From: Squalus acanthias
Lineage: Eukaryota
Reading direction: 5' to 3'
DNA: 64,000 nucleotides
Assembly (NCBI GenBank): GCA_030390025.1
Contig: CM059432.1
Coordinates: 7,750,001 to 7,814,000, forward strand
Shown: one piece after another, positions 1,407-62,380 of the stretch
Position numbering within the stretch: position 1 is the first letter of the stretch
Layout of the letters: each line of letters starts with the position of its first letter
Program-made: the position numbers and the translations under genes
The notes under the pieces: model-generated
Database searches by the model: none
What the model was told of the DNA's origin: nothing
Seen by the model: only the letters and a program-made list of their open reading frames with translations

Positions 1407-2295
1407 CCTGTGAGGAGGACAGAAAGAGGCTGCAAAGGGATATAGACAGGTCAATTGAGCAGGCAAGAAGGTGGCAGATGGAGTATAATGTGGGGAAATG
1501 TGAAAATATCCTCTTGGGTATGAAGAATATAAAAGCAGAATATTTTTTAAAAGATGAGAGACTAGTAAATGTTGGTATGCAGAGGGATTTGGGTGTCCTT
1601 GTGCATAAATCACAGAAAGTTAACATGCAGGAACAGCAAGCAATTAGGAAGGCAAATGGTATGTTAGCCTTCATTGCAAGGGGGTTGGAGTACAAGAGTA
1701 AGGAAGTCTTGCTGCAATTATATAGGGGTTTGGTGAGACCACGCCTGGAGTATTGTGTACAGTTTTGGTCACCTTACCTAAGGAAGGTTATACTTGCCTT
1801 AGACGGAGTGCAACAAAAGTTGATTAGATTGATTTCTGGATGAGAGGGCTGTCCTACGAGGAGAGATTGTGTAGAATGGGCCTACGCTCTCTGGAGTTTA
1901 GAAGAATGAGAGGTGATCTCCTTGAAACGTATAAAATTCTGAGAGGGCTTGACAGGGTAGATGCTGAGAGGTTGTTTCCCCTGGCTGGAGAGTCTAGAAC
2001 CAGGGATCCATAGTCTCAGGATAAGGGGTCGGCCATTTAGGATAAGATGAGGAGAAATTTCTTCACTCAGAGGGTTGTGAATCTTTGGAATTCTCTGCCC
2101 CAGAGGGCTGTGGATGTTCAGTCATTGATTATATAGAAGACTGAGATCGATAGGTTTTTGGGCACTAAGGCAATCAAGGGATATGGGGATAGGGCGAGAA
2201 AGTGGAGTTGATGTAGAAGATAAGCCATGATCTTATTGAATGGTGGAGCGGGCTCGAGGGGCCGTATGGCCTACTCCTGCTCCTATATCTTATGA
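1407..2295 (+). mobile_element. CR1 LINE 3' fragment
   Basis: ORF 1478-1843 ([31 protein letters not shown]) followed by CR1 3'UTR and cttatg tail. Confidence 0.9.
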
Positions 2296-2351
2296 ACTGC
2301 CACAACTCCTTTCCTGAGGCAGTCTAGTGTCCCGCTGTTTTTCATGATTAA

Positions 2352-3240
2352 GGATATAGTAGTATAGTGGTTATATTACTGAAGTAGTAATCCAGGGGCC
2401 TGCACTAATAATCCAGACAACATGAGTTCAAATCCCACCATGGCAGTTTGAGAATTTGACTTCAGTTAAGAAAAAACCTGGAAATAAAGAGCTGGTATCA
2501 GTAAAATGTGATCAGGAAGCCATCAGATTGTTGTAAAAACCCATTTGGTTCACCAACGTCCTTTAGGGAAGGAAATCTGGCATCCTTACGTGGTCTGGCC
2601 TATATGTGACTCCAATCCCACACCATTGTGGTTGACTCTTAGCTGCCCCCTGTACTGGCCTAGCAAGCCACTAAGTTGTATCATATAGAACATAAGAAAT
2701 AGGAGCAGGAATAGGCCACTTGGCCCCTCGAGCCTGCTCCGCCATTCAATAAGATCATGGCTGATCTTGGGCTCAAAGCCACTTCCCCACCCGCTCCCCA
2801 TAACCCTTCACTCCCTTATCTTGCAAAAATCTGTCTATCTCCACCTTAAATGTATTTAATGACCCAGCCTCCACAGCTCTCTGGGGCAGAGAATTCCACA
2901 GATTTATGACCCTCTGAGAGAAGAAATTCCTCCTCATCTCAGTTCTAAAAGGGCGACCTTTTATTCTGAAACTATGCCCCCGAGTTCTAGATTTCCCCAC
3001 AAGGGGAAACATCCTCTCTGCATCTACCTTGTCGAGACCCCTCAGTATCTTATATGTTTCAATAAGATCACCTCTCATTCTTCTAAATTCCAATGAGTAT
3101 AGGCCCAACCTACTCAACCTTTCCTCATCAAACTGCTATGAAGAATAAACAAGGACTGTAGTTCAAGAAGGAAGCCCACCTTCTCAGGGCAAATATGGAT
3201 GGATAACTAAAGCTGGCTTTGCCAACGACAGCCACATGTT
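2352..3240 (+). mobile_element. tRNA-derived SINE (family B), interrupted by a CR1
   Basis: A-box-like tagtggtta and B-box-like gagttcaaatccc; same body as copies at 15770, 38630, 42992, 62600; resumes at about 3129 with LINE-like tail. Confidence 0.8.
2684..3128 (-). mobile_element. CR1 LINE 3' fragment inserted in SINE B
   Basis: ORF 2773-3117(-) LGLYSLEFRRMRGDLIETYKI...WNSLP plus 3'UTR. Confidence 0.9.
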
Positions 3241-5814: not shown

Positions 5815-6487
5815 TGCCCATATACAGCTGCTCACGATGTGGTCTCCTCTACATTGGGGAGACCAAACGCAGATTGGGTGACCGCTTTGCGGAACACCTC
5901 CGTTCAATCCCTAAGGGGGACCCCGAGCTCCCGGTCGCCTGTCACTTTAATTCACCGCTTCACTCCCACTCTGACCTCACTGTCCTCGGCCTATTACACT
6001 GTTCCATGGAAGCTCAGCGTAAGCTCGAGGAACAGCACCTCATCTTTCGTTTAGGCACGCTACAGCCCTCTGGACTCAACATCGAGTTCAACAATTTCAG
6101 AACATAACCTCGACCCCCATCACATTTATATTTTATTTTTTCATCCACCCTTTTGTTTGGCCCCCCCTTTTTTTTTCCCTCCCAGAAGCTGGCAGTGGTC
6201 CTTCATTCTGCCAGTGCATTTCACACTTCATCAAGCCTCAACCTGTCACATTAACACCTCCTCTTGCCTTGATTATCTCTTAATGTCTCTCAATGTCTCT
6301 TAATCTCTCCTTTTGTTCTTTCATCCCCTCCCCCTTTTCCCAGCTTTATCCTTGCTTTAAATCTATTTCATTTCCTGCTTTTTTCCAGTTCTGACGAAAG
6401 GTCTTCGACCTGAAACGTTAACTCTGTTTCTCTCTCCATGGATGCTGCCTGGCCTGCTGAGATTTTCCAGCGTTTTCTGTTGTTTTT
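5815..6487 (+). mobile_element. Penelope-like element, 5'-truncated (GIY-YIG end plus terminal repeat)
   Basis: CSRCGLLYIGETKRRLGDRFAEH...GLNIEFNNFR nearly identical to the C-terminus of ORF 34441-37350; followed by the same terminal repeat. Confidence 0.95.
6387..6423 (+). ncRNA. minimal type I hammerhead ribozyme
   Basis: agtt-CTGACGA-a-aggtc(ttc)gacct-GAAA-cg-TT-aact: intact core, stem II, stem I agtt/aact. Confidence 0.8.
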
Positions 6488-34124: not shown

Positions 34125-34535
34125 GAGTTCAACAATTTTAGATCATAACCTCAGCTCCAATCACATTTATATTTTATTTTATCTACCCTTTTATTTGTCC
34201 CCCCCACCTTTTTTTTTTTTTTTTTCCTCCTAGAAGCTGGCAGCTGTCCTTCATTCTGCCAGTAGATTTCACACTTCATTCAGCCTTAATCTGTCACATT
34301 AACACCACCTCTAGCCTTGCATATCTCTTAATGTCTCTTAATGTCTCTTCATCTCCTCCTTTGTTCCTTTATCCCCTCCCCCTTTTCCCAGCTTTACCCT
34401 GGCCTTAAATCTATTTGATTTCCAGCTCTTCCCAGTTCTGATGAAAGGTCATCGACCTGAAACGTCAACTCTCTTTCTCTCTCCACGGATGCTGCCTGGC
34501 CTGCTGAGTTTTTCCAGCGTTTTCTGTTGTTATTT
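34125..34535 (+). repeat. 5' pseudo-LTR of the Penelope element
   Basis: Matches 37327-37742 except for about 2 substitutions and poly(T) length; starts with the last codons of the ORF. Confidence 0.95.
34434..34470 (+). ncRNA. minimal type I hammerhead ribozyme (GUC site)
   Basis: agtt-CTGATGA-a-aggtc(atc)gacct-GAAA-cg-TC-aact; predicted cleavage after C34466. Confidence 0.85.
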
Positions 34536-37350
34536 CGGATTTCCAGCATCTGCAGTATTTTGCTATCGTATTAGTGCTTGGTTCACTGCCACCTCTCTTC
34601 TTGGAATGCCTACCTTGAAGAAGTTCTGCTCTTCTCTTCGACGGGATTTCCGTTTGGCTCTTCAACCTTGTTCATCTTCATTGATTTCAGTTTCCCTTCT
34701 CGTGTTTGATCAGGTATCTGCCAAGACTCGGTTTCACAGCCACATTACTTTCCTCAGCAACTGTCTCCGGTTCCGACTTATCCCACGTGGATTCCAACTA
34801 AACTTCCACCCTTCGTGTTTCGGATCCACCCAGGATTACAAATATCTCCAAGATATTCATCGTTCCTCGAACTACTGCTCTCGCCGCATCTTGAGATCCA
34901 CGCTCAATGCCATGCGGCGCCACATGAACACTCTCGACATCTCTCTTCAGCAGCACCGACGCACTCTATCTCAAAGCTGTCCGGGTCCACAGTTCCATTT
35001 CATCCTTAGACTCATCCGACGCTTCAACAAAAAACTTTTCTTCTTCCTTTCCGATGTCAAGGATCGCAAGCTTCAACAACTCTTGGACACTAAAGCCCCT
35101 CCGGAACCTTCTTCCCCTTCACTTTCCTCTGACCCCCCTTCTCCCAATCTCACCCCCTGCCGCGTTTTCACTATCCCCTCTGACCTTCCCCTCTCTGACT
35201 CCGAACGATCAGTCCTCAGCAAAGGCCTGAGCTTCATCCCCTTACGCCCCCATCTCAATGAATTTCGAGCTCGGCACGATGCTGAGCTCTTTTTCCGCCG
35301 CCTCCGTCTCCGTGCCCACTTCTCTGGCCAGGAGTCTTCCCCCCGCACGGCTGACCCTTTCTCCCGCTTTCAGAATTCTCGTTCCACCTGGACCCCTCCC
35401 TCTGGCCTCTTACCCTCTCTTGATCTTTTCATTGCTAACTGCCGCCGTGACATCGGCCAGCTCAATTTCTCTGCTCCCCTCACTCACTCCAACCTACCTC
35501 CCTCTGAACTTGCAGCACTCCATTCTCTCCGATCCAACCCTGACATTGTCATTAAACCTGCTGACAAGGGTGGCGCTGTTGTTGTTTGGCGAACCGACCT
35601 CTACCTAGCGGAAGTTGAACGCCAACTCTCTGACACCTCCTCCTACCTCCACCTGGACCATGACCCCACTACCGAACATCAAGCCACCGTGTCCAAGACT
35701 GTCACTGACCTCATCTCCTCTGGAGATCTTCCCCCCACGGCCGCCAACCTCATAGTTCCCCAACCCCGCACAGCCCGCTTCTACCTCCTTCCCAAGATCC
35801 ACAAACAGGACTGCCCCGGTAGACCCATCGTTTCAGCCTGTTCTTGCCCCACGGAACTTATCTCTTCCTATCTCGACTCTATTTTTTCTCCCCTTGTCCA
35901 GTCTCTTCCCACCTACATCCGCGACTCTTCCGATGCCCTCCGCCATTTTAACAGTTTCCAGTTTCCCGGCCCCAACCGTCTCCTCTTCACTATGGACGTA
36001 CAATCCCTCTACACCTCCATTCCCCACCAGGATGGCCTGAGGGCGCTCCGCTTCTTCCTTGAACAGAGGCCCAACCAGTCCCCATCCACCACCACCCTCC
36101 TCCGCCTGGCTGAACTTGTTCTCACATTGAACAACTTCTCCTTTGACTCTACCCATTTCCTCCAAATTAAAGGTGTTGCTATGGGTACCCGCATGGGTCC
36201 TAGCTATGCCTGCCTTTTCGTGGGATATGTGGAACACTCTTTGTTCCAGTCCTACTCGGGTCCCCTCCCTCACCTCTTTTTCCGGTACATTGATGACTGT
36301 ATCGGTGCCGTCTCCTGCTCTCGCCCTGAACTAGAACATTTCATTCACTATGCTTCCAATTTCCACCCTTCCCTCACCTTCACATGGTCCATCTCCGACT
36401 CTTCTCTTCCCTTCCTCGACTTCTTCATCTCCATCTCTGGGGATAGGTTATTGACTAACATTCACTACAAGCCCACCGACTCCCACAGCTACCTGGACTA
36501 CACTTCCTCCCACCCCGCCTCCTGTAAGGACTCTATTCCATTCTCCCAGTTTCTCCGTCTCCGCCGCATCTGCTCTGATGATGCCACCTTCCATACCAGT
36601 GCTTCCGACATGTCTTCCTTTTTCCTCAACCGAGGATTCCCCTCTACCGTGGTCGACGCGGCCCTCGACCGTGTCCGTTCTATCTCCCGCACATCTGCCC
36701 TCACCCCTGCCCCTCCCTCCCGGAACCACGATAGGGTTCCCCTTGTCCTCACCTTTCACCCCACCAGCCTCCACATTCAACGGATCATCCTCCGCCATTT
36801 CCGCCACCTCCAGCGTGATCCCACCACCAAACACATCTTCCCCTCACCTCCCCTTTCAGCATTCCGCAGGGACCGCTCCCTCCGCGACACCCTAGTCCAC
36901 TCCTCTACCACCCCCAGCACCCCTTCCCCCGGCACCTTCCCGTGCACGCGCAGGAGATGCAACACATGCCCTTATACCTCCCCTCTTCCCACTGTCCAGG
37001 GCCCCAAACACCCCTTCCAGGTGAAACAGCGATTTACTTGTACTTCCTGCAATTTAGTATACTGTATTCGCTGCTCACGATGTGGACTCCTCTACATTGG
37101 GGAGACCAAACGCAGATTGGGTGACCGCTTTGCGGAACACCTCCGTTCAGTCCGTAAGGGGGACCCCGAGCTCCCGGTGGCCTGTCACTTTAATTCACCG
37201 CTTCACTCCCACTCTGACCTCACCGTCCTCGGCCTAATACACTGTTCCACGGAAGCTCAGCGTAAGCTCGAGGAACAGCACCTCATCTTTCGTTTAGGCA
37301 CGCTACAGCCCTCTGGACTCAATATCGAGTTCAACAATTTTAGATCATAA
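34441..37350 (+). CDS. Penelope-like reverse transcriptase plus GIY-YIG endonuclease (969-codon frame; true start may be 34489 or 34606)
   Basis: IKPADKGGAVVV, YLLPKIHK, GRPIVS, MDVQSLYT, GVAMG, FRYIDD, Cys-rich linker FPCTRRRCNTC, VYCIRCSRCGLLYIGETKR, GLN; no stops or frameshifts. Confidence 0.96.
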   Translation: MKGHRPETSTLFLSPRMLPGLLSFSSVFCCYFGFPASAVFCYRISAWFTATSLLGMPTLKKFCSSLRRDFRLALQPCSSSLISVSLLVFDQVSAKTRFHSHITFLSNCLRFRLIPRGFQLNFHPSCFGSTQDYKYLQDIHRSSNYCSRRILRSTLNAMRRHMNTLDISLQQHRRTLSQSCPGPQFHFILRLIRRFNKKLFFFLSDVKDRKLQQLLDTKAPPEPSSPSLSSDPPSPNLTPCRVFTIPSDLPLSDSERSVLSKGLSFIPLRPHLNEFRARHDAELFFRRLRLRAHFSGQESSPRTADPFSRFQNSRSTWTPPSGLLPSLDLFIANCRRDIGQLNFSAPLTHSNLPPSELAALHSLRSNPDIVIKPADKGGAVVVWRTDLYLAEVERQLSDTSSYLHLDHDPTTEHQATVSKTVTDLISSGDLPPTAANLIVPQPRTARFYLLPKIHKQDCPGRPIVSACSCPTELISSYLDSIFSPLVQSLPTYIRDSSDALRHFNSFQFPGPNRLLFTMDVQSLYTSIPHQDGLRALRFFLEQRPNQSPSTTTLLRLAELVLTLNNFSFDSTHFLQIKGVAMGTRMGPSYACLFVGYVEHSLFQSYSGPLPHLFFRYIDDCIGAVSCSRPELEHFIHYASNFHPSLTFTWSISDSSLPFLDFFISISGDRLLTNIHYKPTDSHSYLDYTSSHPASCKDSIPFSQFLRLRRICSDDATFHTSASDMSSFFLNRGFPSTVVDAALDRVRSISRTSALTPAPPSRNHDRVPLVLTFHPTSLHIQRIILRHFRHLQRDPTTKHIFPSPPLSAFRRDRSLRDTLVHSSTTPSTPSPGTFPCTRRRCNTCPYTSPLPTVQGPKHPFQVKQRFTCTSCNLVYCIRCSRCGLLYIGETKRRLGDRFAEHLRSVRKGDPELPVACHFNSPLHSHSDLTVLGLIHCSTEAQRKLEEQHLIFRLGTLQPSGLNIEFNNFRS

Positions 37351-38940: not shown

Positions 38941-39319
38941 TAGCCTGCTCCTGTTCCTATGATCCTCCTTTAATCAAAGTGTTGCCTACTTAAGAACCGC
39001 TGCAATTTTAATACTAAGATAAATTAATACATAATGGGCATTGCAGATCATGAAGAACATCTCTGCAAAGCAAACATTTTCAAGGCATCTTCAAACTAAC
39101 TCTCGTGAAACCTTTGCTGCTGATATGATTCATTTCCTCAGCACTGACTGATCGCCTGTTACATCAGATTCCAGCTTTTGTCTCACACCGTACTTTAATT
39201 CCTGATCGCGTGGCAACTGTTAAGCATTTATTTTTGTGACTACTCCTGTTTCTATCATGAGGTAGTTCTGAGCGTGCTTTGAAACCTCATCAGCACGTTA
39301 CAAACTTTATACTACGTTG

Positions 39320-39709
39320 TGACATGAATCTTGTCATTCATGTATGAAATAATACTGGGCGGCCTGCTGGTGGCGCTGTCCAGGGAGAGTATAAATACTC
39401 GGGCATGGACCCAGCTTGCTTAGGACATTCTTTAACAGGAACTAGTAAAGGACAGAACTAGATCTCCATGTTGAAAAACAGTTGATTAAAGCTTTGTTTA
39501 ACGCTTAGACCAAGTGCCTAGTAGTTTTCTTACATCAATTTAATCAACTGTTTTTCAACATGGAGGTCTAGTTGTGTCCTTCACTAGTTCCTGTTGAGGA
39601 ATGTCCTAAGCAAGCTGGGCCCATGCCCGAGTATTTATACTCTCCCTGGACAGCACCACCAGCAGGCCGCCCAGTATTACTTCATACATGAATGACAAGA
39701 TTCATGTCA
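39320..39709. repeat. fold-back element: 171-bp inverted arms, 48-bp spacer, TG..CA ends, 5-bp TSD
   Basis: 39320-39490 is the reverse complement of 39539-39709 with about 8 mismatches; cgttg at 39315-39319 and 39710-39714. Confidence 0.92.
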
Positions 39710-39919
39710 CGTTGTATATTCTGACAGATTACAATGCACACAAATGTACAGAAGGCTTATAACTGGGACATACAGCTCATCAGAATGGGTTTAAAATCTC
39801 GCCCCCTTTATTGTGGCTCTTCAGTGTGTAACAAAAATTACACCATGACTGGACGAATTGGGAAGATGAATAGGGTGTTTCAAATCATCAAAAAAGTTGA
39901 TTTTTTCAACAGTTAATAG

Positions 39920-40859
39920 AATGTCTAGGCCTTGGAGAGGCTGCGGAGGAGATACCAGGGGTGAGGGACTTCCGTTACGTGGAGGGGCAGGCGAAGCTGG
40001 GATTGTTCTCCTTGGAGCAGAAAAGGTTAAGGGGAGATTCAATAAAGGTGTTAAAAATCATGAACGGATTTGATAGAGCAAATAAGGAGAAACTGTTTCC
40101 AGTGGCAGAAGTGTCGGTAACCAGAGGTCACAGATTTAAAAGAAAAGAAAGTCTTGCATTTATATAGCGCCTTTCATGACCACCGGACGTCCCAAAGCAC
40201 TTTACAGCCAATGAACTACTTTTTTTTTTGAAGTGGAGTCACTGTTGTAATGTGGGAAACGCAGCAGCCAATTTGCGCACAGCAAGGTCCCACAAACAGC
40301 AATGTGATAATGACCAGATAAACTGTTTTTGTTATGTTGGTTGAGGGATAAATATTGGCTCAGGGACAGCTACCCTGCTCTTCTTCGAAATAACGCCATG
40401 GGATCTTTTACGTCCACCTGAGAGAGCAGACAGGGCCTCGGTTTAACCTCTCATCCTCCGACAGTGCAGCACTCCCTCAGCACGGCACTGGAGTGTCAGC
40501 CTAGCTTTATGTGCTTTAAGTCCCTGGAGTGGGACTTGAACCCACAACCTTCTGATTCAGACGCGAGGTTGCTACCCACTGAGTCACATCTGACACTAGG
40601 TAATTGGCAAAAGAACCAGAGGCGAGAGGAGGAAAAAAATTTTATGCAGCGAGTTGTGATCTGGAATGCGCTGCCTGGAAGGGAAGCAGATCCAATAGTA
40701 ACTTTCAAAAGGGGAATTGGATAAATACTTGAAGGGGGAAAATTTGCAGGGCCCCGGGGAAAGAGCGGGGGGTGAGTGGGACTAATTGGTTCGCTCTTTC
40801 AAAGAACCAGCACAGGCACGATGGGCCGAATGGCCACCTTCTGTGCTGTAAGATTCTAT
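39920..40859 (+). mobile_element. CR1 3' fragment interrupted by a SINE
   Basis: [15 protein letters not shown]...TRGHRFK, resumes at about 40598 to the 3'UTR and tail. Confidence 0.85.
40140..40596 (-). mobile_element. DeuSINE, SacSINE1-like
   Basis: Head, core and tail as other copies. Confidence 0.87.
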
Positions 40860-42226: not shown

Positions 42227-42244
42227 GAATGTGAAGCCTTATAT

Positions 42245-42430
42245 TTTTTTTTCGCTTATGGGATGTGAGCGCCGCTGGCAAGGCCCAACATTTATTGCCC
42301 GTCCCTAGTTGCCCTTGAGAAGGTGGTGGTGAGCCACCTTCTTGAACCGCTGCAGTCCGTGTGGTGAAGGTGCTCCCACAGTGCCGTTAGCGAGGAAGTT
42401 CCAGGATTTTGACCCAGCGACGATGAAGGA
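42245..42430 (-). mobile_element. LINE-X 3' fragment
   Basis: Reverse complement of 46960-47140. Confidence 0.85.
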
Positions 42431-42991
42431 TATGATACAAACTAATGGCTTACCAAAGACTGGAGTTTGAAACCTCACGTGGTATTTGAAAGTAGCTGAA
42501 GCGGCACTAACGAGAGGTACAACCCGATTATAATAAACTCTTTAAAAGCTGCTTGCTACTGCATTAGAAAGATCAATTTCTCAATTGGAAGTGACTTCGT
42601 AACAGAAGAAAATTTTCAACTCTAATGTGAACACGTTATGTGAAAACAGTTAACAAGTCAGGTTACAAAGCTACTACACGAACTTACGCTGCTGTTGCTG
42701 ATAGTCTTGAGCCAAAGTGCAGTGTAATAATAAATATTAATTTCCTAAGTTTGAAATATTAAAAAGAGCATAAACCCTGGGGGAACTGCAGCAGAAGCCA
42801 TGTCTGGATGAACAACCATGATCTTTATTTGAAGGGGAGCCACGTGCCAGTTACAATTCACTTTAGAATGATTGAGTCAGTGGCCCACTGCACTTCTATT
42901 GATCTTGCATGTGCTCAGAAAAGGAACCTGAGCCTTCGACATTCGCAATGTTTAGGAAATCAAACGGTCCCTGCTGTTGCAGTTTACAGTG

Positions 42992-43380
42992 CGGTAGCAC
43001 GGTGGTTATGTTACTGGACGAGTTAATGCAGGGGCCTGGAGGAATGATCTTGGCAGCTATGAGTTCAAATCCCGCCACGACAGCTGGGGAATTTAAATTC
43101 AAGTTATAAAATTATAATATGGAATTTTTAAAAAAATGCTGACATCCGTAATGGATTGTAAAAACCCATCTGGTTCACGAATCGGCCGTCCTTACCCGGT
43201 CGGAGCCTCAATGTGACTCCAGACCCACAGCAATGTGGTCAACTCTTAACTGCTGCCCTCTGCCACTCAGTTGTATTCAAGAAGGCGGCTCACCACCACC
43301 GTCTCGAGGGCAGTTAGGGATGGGCAATAAATGCCGGCCTTGCCAGCGATGTCCGCATCCCATGAATGAATAAAAAAAAT
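42992..43380 (+). mobile_element. SINE family B
   Basis: tRNA-like head ggtagcacggtggtta...gagttcaaatccc, LINE-X-like tail, poly(A). Confidence 0.82.
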
Positions 43381-43614
43381 AAGAGACACTGGGGTGCATT
43401 TTCCAAAAGTCATTCCCGCATTCCTCTGTGTGCTTTTTTTAAGGTAATGTTAACCCATTTATGTTACCCCAGTTAATGCACAGCGAGGATCTTAGTTAAG
43501 CATTTGTACGGGAGCATTGCTGCCTGGAAAATTTATCCCAACAGCCTTTTATTAATTAATGCAAGGCATGACGATCGTTTAATATTCTAGGTCATGTGTC
43601 TTGGGCTTTTCCTA

Positions 43615-54387: not shown

Positions 54388-57300
54388 GGGCTGGATAATG
54401 CCAGTGTGGGCGGGCTGGGGCGTGTCAGGTGGAAATCGTGTCAGGACCCCGACTCCTAAGTGAAGTGCTGAAAAAGTGGGATTTTCCCCTAATTGGGCAA
54501 TTGATTTCCTGCGTGTGGGAACACCTGGCCCAATGAGTCTGTTCATACAGAAAGTCGCCTCCGATGAAGTCATCAATGCTGCTGGATTTAAGACCTGCAA
54601 GCAGCCTTGCTTCTTCTGGAGATTGCAAAGGCTTTGGACATTGTATGAAGGTGTTGATTTCCCGACAATGTCCACGATCAAGCAAAAGTGTGCACCTCGG
54701 TTTGATGAGCCCTCCCTCCAAGCTCTGGTGCATGGAGCCAGATGTAATAAGGAGGTGCTCTTCCCTTCCTCAGGGGGAAAAAAGCCACCCCAGCAGACAA
54801 AAGCTGTGTGGCTACAAGTGGCCCAGGAGGTCAACTCCATTTCGCTGAGCCGCAGAACCTGGCTGCAATGCAGGAAGAGGTTTCATGATCTTCTCCGCAC
54901 AGGAAAAGTGAGTATGACTTTCCCATCACCCTCAATCTGATCCCCATCGCCTCTCCTCACCAGCACCCTGCTTTGCCAACCTCTTCCTCCACATGCCACT
55001 TGACCCTTACATGCCTGCACCCTTACCCATTCCCTCTCTCTCGAAGGTCACATTCACTTAACTATTCTACCATGCAGCCCTCACACTCCCTATCACTGTG
55101 ATGCCATGACAACAACAACTTACTACACACAGAGAGGGCCCTTTGTCTCCTTCTAAGCATCTATGCTATGGATTATCTACACTCACTCCTTCATTCACAC
55201 TCAAACTCCTCTTGTGTCCCTCATTGCAGGAAAAGAGAGCCCACAATAAGAGGGAAAGAGCCATGACAGGAGGAGGGCCACCCTCAGTAGCCCAGCTCAC
55301 CACCCTGGCGGCCCTGGAAATCGCCGGGATCGAGGAGGATTCCCAAGTGGGGGATGGACAGATGGGCGCATCGCAGCAAGCTTTTGACAGAATAGTTTTT
55401 CATCTCTCTCATTGACATTGCATGAGTCACTGATAATGAATCTGATGCTCTAACAGATTGACTTATGATCATCTGCACTATTCAATGTTCATGTAACCTT
55501 GACCTCACATCTCTAACTCTTTCCTTTACTCCCCCACTGGACCATCGAAAGCCCCCATCCCCACTGTCCAGGAGGAAGAGCCTGAGCTTCCAGCCTCCTC
55601 AGAGGAAGCTGCAACCTCTGAGGGCGCAGCCTCAGCAGAATTCAGCGCACCCAGCACCAGCGCAGACACTCACACCTCGGTGGGACCTTCTCGAGATAGA
55701 GCAGTGTTGGCACCTGGTGTATCATAGCTCACAAGTGAGCATCAGCAGATGGTGGAGACAGGGACAGCAGTGGAGAGTCCTCGTCGGAGGGCGCAGGACT
55801 CTGCCAGCTCGGCTCAGCTGCATGTCGACCCTGTGCCTCCGGGTCCATCCAGAACGAGAGCGGTGCTGGAACTCCAGGAACAGGTGCAGGAGTCTCTGGC
55901 AGGTTTTGTCTCCAGGGTCGCTGCGAGTGTCGAGCGAATGGAGGAGTCCATCGCGAACATGAGCAGAGCCTTTGTGGAGGCATTGGCGCATAAACGCATC
56001 ACCATGGAAAGGATGGCAACCTCCGTGGAAAGGATGGCTACAGTAGAGGAGAGAATGGCTACGGCCATGGAGGAGCTAAGTTGCCAGAGTGTAGAAAACA
56101 TGGTCATTGTTCAGAATAGACTGGCATCTCTTGAGGAGCGATGGTCAGCTACTGAGCATAGAAACCAGACCTTCATGGAAGTCCTCTGGAGTAGGACTTC
56201 CAGTGCAGAAACGGGTCCTCATGGCCCCCCTGATGTGCAGCAAGGTGCTGTCAAGCCACTTGCTAGCTCTGAAGTGGGGCTGACCCATGAGAGGGATGTT
56301 GGTGGCAGACAACAAGGAAGTGGGGGCTCCTCTCTAAATGCTCAAACGACCATGCCACTGCAAAGCCCTCGGTCAGAGCCCCACCAGAGTCCTCACCCAA
56401 CTGAGATGGGCATCTCATCCCCTGCACAGCCGCAGGAGCAGCAGACTGTTGCCGAACCCTCACAGGTTCACAACCCCAGAGGACAGCCGCCAAAGGTGTC
56501 AAGACAGGAGCAGCAAGAAAGTGAGCAAGGGGCCTCCACATCTGCTGAAGCCACAGGGGAAGCACCATGTAGGAGCACGCGTAAGAGGAAGATAATGCAC
56601 AAGTAGTCACAAGGGTAGTCACTTGGGTGTTATGTTGTGTTTATTTTTGAAATGCCACCAGTTGCTTGTTGTGATAAAAAAATCTGATGGCAAACTGTTG
56701 AAGTTGTGGCGTGTATCATTTTGCAAATGGGACTTCCACATTGAGGGCTTAGAGTGACTTGCAATTGTCAGTATGGTGGTCAGAGTGATAGGAATCCACA
56801 GGTTCTTGTCCATTGTCGATGCTCTGGTAAGAAGGTGCGAGGCAAAAGTGTTTGATTGTACAGGCTAAGCAAATGTGACCAACATGGGTGTGTCCCTTGC
56901 ATCCTGGGCAGCAATATGGTCGCGCTCTTGCGACTTCTGGCCTGTGCATCTTCAGGTGGGTGACTAGCAGCTTGGCGCTCCTGTTGCTGCTCCTGCTGTT
57001 GGTACTGCTGTTGCTCATGGTTCTGCTGCTGCCGCGGCTGGTCTTCATCCGAATCTGATGTCCAGGAGGAAAGGAATTAAATAGTCGCCATACTTCTGGT
57101 ATATGCCTCAGTTGAGGAAGTGCTTAGTCAAGTTGGGGAGAGGGGTTTCCCAGGAGGCCACACTGGAGATGGGTGTCAGGCTCCAAACTTCCACAACACT
57201 GAGTATGCCTGCTAAAAGTTACCCCAGACCTGAAACGACAAAGTTCTGCCACCTGCAAATGATCATTGGTGAAAACTCCTTTGTAATGGTGGAGCTGCAG

Positions 57301-61679: not shown

Positions 61680-62380
61680 AAGGGGGATGGGGGAGGGAGA
61701 TTGGAAGGGTCGGGGGAGATCGATAGGGTCAGGGGGAGATCGGAAGGTTCAGGAGGAGATCGATAGGGTCGGGGGGAGATCGGAAGGGTTGAGGGGAGAT
61801 TGATAGGGTCGTGGGGGGGTCGGGGGGAGATCGGAAGGGTCGGAGGGAGATCGGAAGGGTCGGGGGGAGATCGAAAGGGTTGGGGGGAGAGTGGAAGGGT
61901 CAGGGAGAGATCGGAAGGGTCAGGGAGAGATTGGAAGGGTCGGGGGGGAGAGTGGAAGGGTCAGGGAGAGATCGATAGGGTTGGGGGGAGTTTGGAAGGG
62001 TCAGGGAGAGATCGGAAGGGTCAGGGAGAGATTGGAAGGGTTGGGGGGAGAGTGGAAGGGTTGGGGGGAGAGTGGAAGGGTTGGGGGGAGATTGGAAGGG
62101 TTGGGGGGAGATCGGAAGGGTTGGGGGGAGATCGGAAGGGTTGGGGGGAGATTGGAAGGGTTGGGGGGAGATCGGAAGGGTTGGGGGGAGATCGGAAGGG
62201 TTGGGGGGAGATAGGAAGGGTTGGGGGGAGATCGGAAGGGTTGGGGGGAGATCGGAAGGGTTGGGGGGAGATCGGAAGGGTTGGGGGGAGATTGGAAGGG
62301 TTGGGGGGAGATTGGAAGGGTTGGGGGGAGATCGGAAGGGTCAGGGAGAGATCGATAGGGTTGGGCCGGTGGGGGAGATC
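61680..62380. repeat. G-rich 20-bp minisatellite (GGGGGGAGATCGGAAGGGTT)n, roughly 35 units
   Basis: Direct tandem repeat, most homogeneous at about 62040-62340. Confidence 0.95.

Follow-up and report, generated by a model that had tools for sequence, protein, structure and literature searches.

The DNA analysed here, referred to as the window, is a 64,000-nucleotide stretch of the Squalus acanthias genome (assembly GCA_030390025.1, contig CM059432.1, positions 7,750,001 to 7,814,000 of the forward strand), and all positions below are counted from its first letter. It is dense in fragments of non-LTR and Penelope-type reverse transcriptases. An open frame of 1002 codons on the plus strand (34342-37350) matches RVT_1 and, weakly, GIY-YIG, and is apparently an intact Penelope-like element; TCTCTTAATG arrays flank this frame at 34324 and 37531 and a third array lies at 6276. 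Further to the right is a Myb/SANT-like ORF (54464-54940, plus strand; PF13873, E 3.9e-08), which we take to be the DNA-binding gene of a Harbinger-type transposon, followed on the same strand by a 292-codon frame with no Pfam match (55728-56606). The window also holds a tandem array of 34 copies of a 20-bp G-rich unit with 84% matches (61695-62365), and two opposed pairs of LINE/SINE fragments (1858-3126 and 42238-43383), 77-90% complementary and 0.4-1 kb apart, that are ordinary inverted neighbours. A Pfam search of 12 of the 105 long ORFs in the window found no integrase or transposase.

The subject of this study is a fold-back unit of 390 bp (39320-39709) that starts with TG and ends with CA. 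Its two arms (39320-39490 and 39539-39709), each of 171 bp and separated by 48 nt, are complementary at 163 of 171 positions. Of the 11 inverted pairs listed for the window, with arms of at least 30 nt lying within 2 kb, this one is the longest and has the highest complementarity. The eight differences between the arms are seven transitions and one transversion, a divergence of 4.7% (K2P 0.049). The unit is bracketed by CGTTG (39315-39319 and 39710-39714); 5-mers this far apart match by background in 2760 of 1,817,100 cases (0.15%). The initial annotation had described a fold-back with 171-bp arms about 95% complementary, TG..CA ends and a cgttg duplication, and each of these points was confirmed.

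The ends could be drawn in two other ways, as shifting both of them one base inward (39321-39708) gives a 7-bp direct repeat and shifting them outward gives a 3-bp repeat. TG..CA ends with a 5-bp duplication are favoured over both options because copies of the family exit exactly after 39537 and have other letters before TGAC; the two 5' loose ends of family copies, among those listed, differ from the unit in the letters that precede TGAC. We note that an A and a T bracket the target-site duplication (TSD), from which the alternative 7-bp repeat arises, and that the predicted empty site (39304-39319 joined to 39715-39718) is a near-palindrome. There was no second copy elsewhere in the 64-kb window, no ORF of at least 100 amino acids overlapping the unit, and no Rfam match in the window at the gathering score, a threshold that a degenerate tRNA-like stretch could escape. 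Lacking an ORF, a polypurine tract and a second direct LTR, the unit is unable to replicate again as a retroelement.

Table 1. Parts of the fold-back unit and its flanking duplication, with positions in the window
Feature	Position	Strand	Evidence
Left TSD copy, CGTTG	39315..39319	.	
LTR-like monomer of 218 bp, complete, TG..CA; family of very high copy number	39320..39537	+	Depth; loose ends at 39537 in 4/4 runs
TATA-like motif (putative), LTR 71-78	39390..39397	+	
LTR 160-171, pairs with the primer-binding site; putative self-primer	39479..39490	+	Exact complement of 39539-39550; role inferred
LTR 172-218, T-rich (18/47) R/U5 part, single-copy within the palindrome	39491..39537	+	With 39538, forms the 48-nt loop
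1-nt spacer and 12-nt self-complementary primer-binding site, native to the family	39538..39550	+	Two X7 contigs
Proposed copy-back extension: LTR 159 to 1 inverted, stopping exactly at LTR base 1 (second U3 end)	39551..39709	-	
Right TSD copy, CGTTG	39710..39714	.	Organism A contig, X1 record 8

Public sequencing runs were compared with the locus, and 20 of the 24 listed contain 8-34% of the words of 39000-39930. Four runs were aligned at 80% likeness; these represent organisms A, B and C, together with a run of organism A that we guess to be RNA, while organisms D-H, with word shares of 0.08-0.22 that were not used, were left out of the alignment. The summed depth was confined to the element, reaching 609,604 in X1 compared with 3.33 on the right flank, which suggests a family of very high copy number, although summed depth is not itself a copy number. 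In all four runs contigs exit right after 39537 (69, 156, 8 and 8 contigs), and the agreement of their flanks past this point was 0.36, 0.35, 0.47 and 0.44, against 0.316, 0.296, 0.443 and 0.443 for random flanks. The sequences past 39537 are therefore mostly unrelated to one another. Agreement in X1 and X6 was slightly above all 500 random draws, and this excess may reflect AT-rich targets or a shared minority. In X6, 47 contigs match two letters beyond the LTR end (to 39539) compared with the 156 that exit at the end, more than random flanks would give and perhaps a target preference.

The natural unit is thus a 218-bp LTR-like monomer that ends at 39537. The proposal that the left arm plus spacer reads as a small LTR is upheld by this family end, present in all four runs, and the same public contigs speak against the option that the arm occurs only as the terminal inverted repeat (TIR) of a DNA transposon. 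Within the monomer TATAAAT starts at 39390 (LTR 71) and ATTAAA occupies 39485-39490 (LTR 166), with 18 T in the 47 letters downstream and a closing CA at 39537. Among 6380 218-mers of the window, 13 have this TATA-then-poly(A) layout, a count that includes those of the element itself. The letter that prevails in the family at 39534, with 55-90% of the depth, makes the 3' end a short inverted repeat of the 5' end. The anatomy described for solo LTRs of animal Ty3/Gypsy elements (PMC3601003) fits 39320-39537, as these share TG..CA short inverted ends, a TATA-like motif, a poly(A) signal, a T-rich stretch and high copy number; the whole unit is unlike them in carrying a primer-binding site (PBS) together with an inverted second U3 inside one TSD. 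The att motifs given there for Sushi, TGTYANR..CNTNACA, differ from the TGACAT..ACATCA termini of the unit. A hexamer at 39478-39483 has five of the six letters of TCAKTY, an initiator consensus taken from the same source, and would place the transcript start at the paired stretch. The monomer is probably the LTR of an integrase-type element, and probably of Ty3/Gypsy.

The family is itself varied. A related family in X1, X6 and X7 has LTR 1-99 in common with the unit and other sequence beyond, seen at 39611, and so a part of U3 is common to subfamilies. About 22-26 bp into the LTR (39340-39345) there is a length-variable site where insertions of 2-10 letters tell subfamilies apart, and a small hairpin lies at the LTR start (LTR 3-24). 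An abundant LTR family is unsurprising here, since batoid genomes are reported to contain 2.7-4.7% LTR elements, mostly Gypsy/DIRS1 (bioRxiv 10.64898/2026.10.27.761883). Later scans of viral contigs found no relative of the LTR, nor was there one in prokaryote genomes. Three 20-mer matches, two in metagenome and one in viral contigs, were rejected as chance because only 20-21 letters were alike. A scan for a relaxed LTR-PBS geometry gave 15 viral loci, none of which resembles the LTR or has a near-identical direct pair; four of the 15 have repeats of 69-75%.

The inversion starts 1 nt past the LTR end, exactly at the last base of ATTAAA, and the first 12 nt of the right arm (39539-39550) are the exact complement of LTR 160-171. 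Two contigs of X7, from the related organism C, follow the unit as far as 39550, after which come 13-14 letters that differ from the arm (agreement 0.96). This junction was found in these two contigs from one of the four runs, among 24 of 298 loose-end rows listed. The contigs must, in our reading, include the LTR end, as twelve right-arm letters are too few to align alone, and the chance of a random flank matching the 13 letters is 2e-8. Because X7 departs at 39550, the native arrangement of the family is the LTR, then 1 nt, then a self-complementary site of 12 nt, with other sequence beyond. The X7 loose-end motif had no match in the window. The exit in X7 also led us to drop a reading of the inner junction as an end-joining scar at a 5-nt repeat (39534-39538 and 39543-39547).

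Self-priming has been recognized from at least 10 bp of complementarity to the LTR beginning 0-5 nt after it (PMC6317226). Here 12 bp begin 1 nt after the LTR end, the native status of this site coming from the two X7 contigs. Tf1 primes itself with the first 11 bases of its own RNA (PMC7175516, PMC4600332), and in Tf1/Tf2 and Tj1 of the Tf1/sushi group the PBS, of 11-12 nt and immediately following the LTR, pairs with the LTR of the element itself (PMC4600332, PMC6317226, PMC7175516). We infer from this likeness that the family may self-prime in a Tf1-like way; the pairing site differs from that of the Tf1 group in overlapping the poly(A) signal. When 39320-39550 was folded as DNA, the 12 pairs formed with probabilities of 0.91-0.99 (z -2.6 and -3.0), a result that is partly circular as these letters belong to the palindrome. 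What the initial annotation had overlooked is a likely cause of the inversion, namely that it appears to begin at the self-complementary PBS of the family. That the right arm grew from this native site is common to the three explanations that we rank highest, and we consider it quite likely.

The best explanation for the unit, to which we give an even chance, is that it is a dead by-product of reverse transcription by a self-priming LTR retrotransposon and was inserted by integrase. The starting point would be the family's LTR end followed by 1 nt and the 12-nt site complementary to LTR 160-171, as seen in two contigs of one related organism. Plus-strand strong-stop DNA, consisting of the LTR and a copy of the 12-nt primer, would then be displaced as a free single strand, as is known for Ty3. 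The first plus-strand strong-stop DNA that Ty3 makes comprises the LTR and 12 nt copied from the primer; re-priming displaces it, and it accumulates as what is described as a dead end rather than an integrated form (PMC5371799). It is the kind of precursor needed, but its tail copies a tRNA with no partner in the LTR and so should not snap back. In a self-priming family the tail is instead complementary to the molecule's own LTR. About 50% of Tf1 cDNA retains a single-stranded PBS at its 3' end (PMC11042837), a tail like that proposed here. The 3' tail may pair with its own LTR across the 48-nt loop, and reverse transcriptase would extend it and run off at LTR base 1. A snap-back product of this kind has a predicted length of 218 + 1 + 171 = 390 nt, which is that of the observed unit to the base, and all three breakpoints fall on functional landmarks, namely 1 nt past the LTR end, the site of primer pairing and LTR base 1. 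A further strong-stop strand might convert the hairpin to double-stranded DNA, or a pair of hairpins might be co-inserted and resolved via homology. Either would yield a product with two U3 ends, which integrase would insert with a normal 5-bp duplication, and the arms would have diverged by about 5% after insertion.

Insertion by integrase is the best single explanation for two U3 ends within a 5-bp duplication. To this extent the idea of an integrase-mobilised element with two identical left ends holds, whereas a mobile fold-back family is not supported by the pieces listed, which show no other copy. Our literature search found nothing relevant on in vivo integration of a two-U3-end substrate, nor any copy-back product of Tf1 in integrated form. 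It also found no description of an integrated LTR snap-back, although one may exist, as subscription journals, Repbase Reports, Dfam and supplements were outside its scope. By analogy the unit resembles a copy-back product of a Tf1-like self-priming element. In copy-back or snap-back defective viral genomes a nascent strand turns back and duplicates one terminus. The present unit is unlike these in being derived from a retrotransposon DNA intermediate and in being fixed in a host chromosome.

One contig of organism A (X1 record 8) spans 39685-39920 and joins the inverted outer end to CGTTG and the same right flank, with 10 of 236 letters different (4.2%). It has only 25 letters on the element side, compared with the 31 of our bridging rule, and a minus-strand solo LTR would look the same in it as a fold-back. 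The divergence of the arms (8/171, 4.7%) is close to that of this flank, so the data fit arms that were identical and were inserted shortly before the split. Three of the eight arm differences (LTR 30, 112 and 114) involve states that both appear common in the family and that differ between organisms A and B; the 40 of 62 rows listed for the arm states do not include counts for the left arm at 112 and 114, and the picture at 112-114 is blurred by a 1-bp length variant. These states hint that the arms came from two different copies. Such an origin is compatible with integrated strong-stop DNA, because two co-packaged RNAs would allow it, but it also favours annealing into a resident antiparallel LTR and would fit an intermolecular template switch. 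The two arms agree at LTR 102 in a letter that is frequent in organisms A and C only. With the right arm as the ancestral one, seven of the eight differences are changes in the left arm, a lopsided division. The left arm has at least three letters that are in the minority in all four runs (39409, 39447 and 39455), and the right arm has one candidate, 39655, in the minority in three runs but not in X6.

There was no second fold-back with this junction among the 32 of 8337 pieces and 24 of 298 loose-end rows listed, and the unit is a single locus, which we take for one genuine insertion that does not replicate. Two opposite-strand joints in X6 (39387/39634 and 39502/39540) were considered as fold-backs and rejected, because the mirror symmetry gives this look to a small deletion and a small duplication. 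In X1 one contig, with a depth of 8.25 and 25 letters on its shorter side, connects 39348 to 39611, that is, the LTR start to an inverted piece from LTR 99, and is possibly another inverted rearrangement with a different breakpoint.

Other routes to the same structure have to be weighed against insertion of a snap-back strong-stop DNA. One is a chromosomal template switch, in which a full-length element was inserted with CGTTG and suffered a later break or stalled fork near the PBS; the 12-nt site would fold onto LTR 160-171, be extended by copying as far as base 1 and be reconnected to the distal end of the 3' LTR via the short terminal inverted repeat, with loss of the interior and retention of the old duplication. 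This accounts for the same native junction and requires no unusual integrase substrate. The microhomology for the return exists, as the reverse complement of the left outer junction and the right outer junction have the terminal motif plus one base in common, and the LTR ends of the family are short inverted repeats when the majority letter at 39534 is used. Against it, the return would have to hit the final 5-7 bases of a remote LTR precisely, while an exact end follows of itself from run-off, and arms identical at origin, which it predicts, are a poor fit with LTR 30, 112 and 114 unless the template was another copy. We consider it unlikely. Integrase-independent annealing is somewhat less likely still: a cDNA with a single-stranded PBS tail would have annealed at the corresponding 12 nt in a solo LTR already resident on the minus strand with its CGTTG pair, the other side being resolved via the terminal motif common to both, with replacement of 47 bp of the resident LTR. 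Tf1 is reported to insert in this way at PBS-homologous sites and beside resident copies (PMC11042837). Annealing would account for arms from two different copies, and the contig of organism A has only the right junction, as a minus-strand solo LTR would give. It requires a second precise microhomology event, and the incoming left arm should be the younger, yet this is the arm with at least three minority letters, against the one right-arm candidate.

We regard as improbable a third route, in which two LTRs were inserted tail to tail, at the same target or from two cDNAs that each gave one end, and the unstable palindrome then underwent an asymmetric central deletion. Deletion at the centre of palindromes is well established, the family is very abundant, and arms from different copies would be expected, but this history gives no reason for a letter-exact 13-nt junction that is seen without the arm in organism C (2e-8 per flank). 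An assembly artefact from a fold-back chimeric read is scarcely credible. No listed piece runs through the whole stretch or crosses the inner junction into the arm, and the left flank was uncovered in all four runs; nevertheless the arms differ at 8 of 171 positions, a 5-bp duplication brackets the unit, the site of the junction is a native PBS, and in organism A the same right flank adjoins the inverted outer end. Two further origins were rejected. A simple nested insertion fails as the missing 47 bp were not found to the left of the unit, and a Penelope pseudo-LTR fails as nothing beyond an 11-mer is alike between the unit and the Penelope element of the window. DIRS-type tyrosine-recombinase retroelements are not known to make a target-site duplication, and the unit has one of 5 bp. 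The tRNA/5S-derived LTR sequence and 4-bp TSD given for Helenus/TRIMp3 (the latter for animal Helenus; PMC10886601) are likewise at odds with the absence of Rfam matches and the 5-bp TSD.

The remaining possibility, a non-autonomous cut-and-paste element such as a Ginger/Tdd-like MITE with 171-bp TIRs, relates to the link with Ginger transposons made in the initial annotation, and we regard it as highly improbable. The unit is like Ginger1, Ginger2 and Tdd in its TG..CA ends and TIR-like arms (PMC2836005). The arm length is within the 40-270 bp of Ginger1 TIRs, but the arm belongs to a family whose unit is a monomer ending at 39537 and is not two-armed. Ginger1 is described with a 4-bp TSD of CCGG or CCGT and TGTNR termini, compared with the 5-bp CGTTG and TGACA found here. 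For Ginger2/Tdd, with TGTNR termini, an RTATAY target and a 4-bp TSD that is 5 bp in TDD-4 and TDD-5 (PMC2836005), only the 5-bp length fits. An integrase-like transposase between the TIRs is absent, the arms being separated by 48 nt, and there is no second copy among the pieces listed. The link to Ginger therefore fails on termini, TSD length and transposase. Nor do the convergent TATA boxes support the long hairpin RNA that had been predicted, as internal promoters would give a stem of about 70 bp at most. By analogy with Tf1, the stem would be only 11-12 bp if transcription starts at the self-primer, and the full 171 bp would require read-through from outside. The term LTR-to-TIR intermediate describes the shape of the unit rather than any demonstrated step in evolution. 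It has been proposed that the TIRs of Ginger1 derive from two oppositely oriented LTRs (PMC2836005). In that scenario two separate elements flank an integrase gene, whereas here one LTR would have been copied back and only its own 3' part is enclosed.

A wider and more tentative proposal, which we hold to be possible but doubtful, is that self-priming LTR retrotransposons recurrently make strong-stop snap-back palindromes that integrase inserts via two U3 ends. If so, there would be an undescribed class of MITE-looking repeats with the fixed anatomy of a whole LTR, a PBS and an inverted U3. Such units would be mis-annotated as MITEs. They would provide a direct, one-step route from LTR to terminal inverted repeat, a genomic fingerprint of self-priming in families that have never been tested at the bench, and evidence that a Gypsy integrase accepts two left ends in the germ line. 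Should one of the rival explanations be true, the locus would be a one-off rearranged solo LTR, a modest finding that would still record a self-priming PBS in a high-copy family. If the unit is indeed an integrated snap-back strong-stop DNA, the locus preserves, as a fossil, an intermediate of replication for which yeast particles are otherwise the only source, and a genome search alone could show whether animal Gypsy families with a self-complementary PBS prime themselves, as only self-priming families should leave such fold-backs, always broken at the primer pairing site. The use of two U3 ends by integrase in vivo would likewise become searchable, and a one-step change from LTR to TIR-like ends would bear on the proposal that Ginger TIRs arose from opposed LTRs (PMC2836005).
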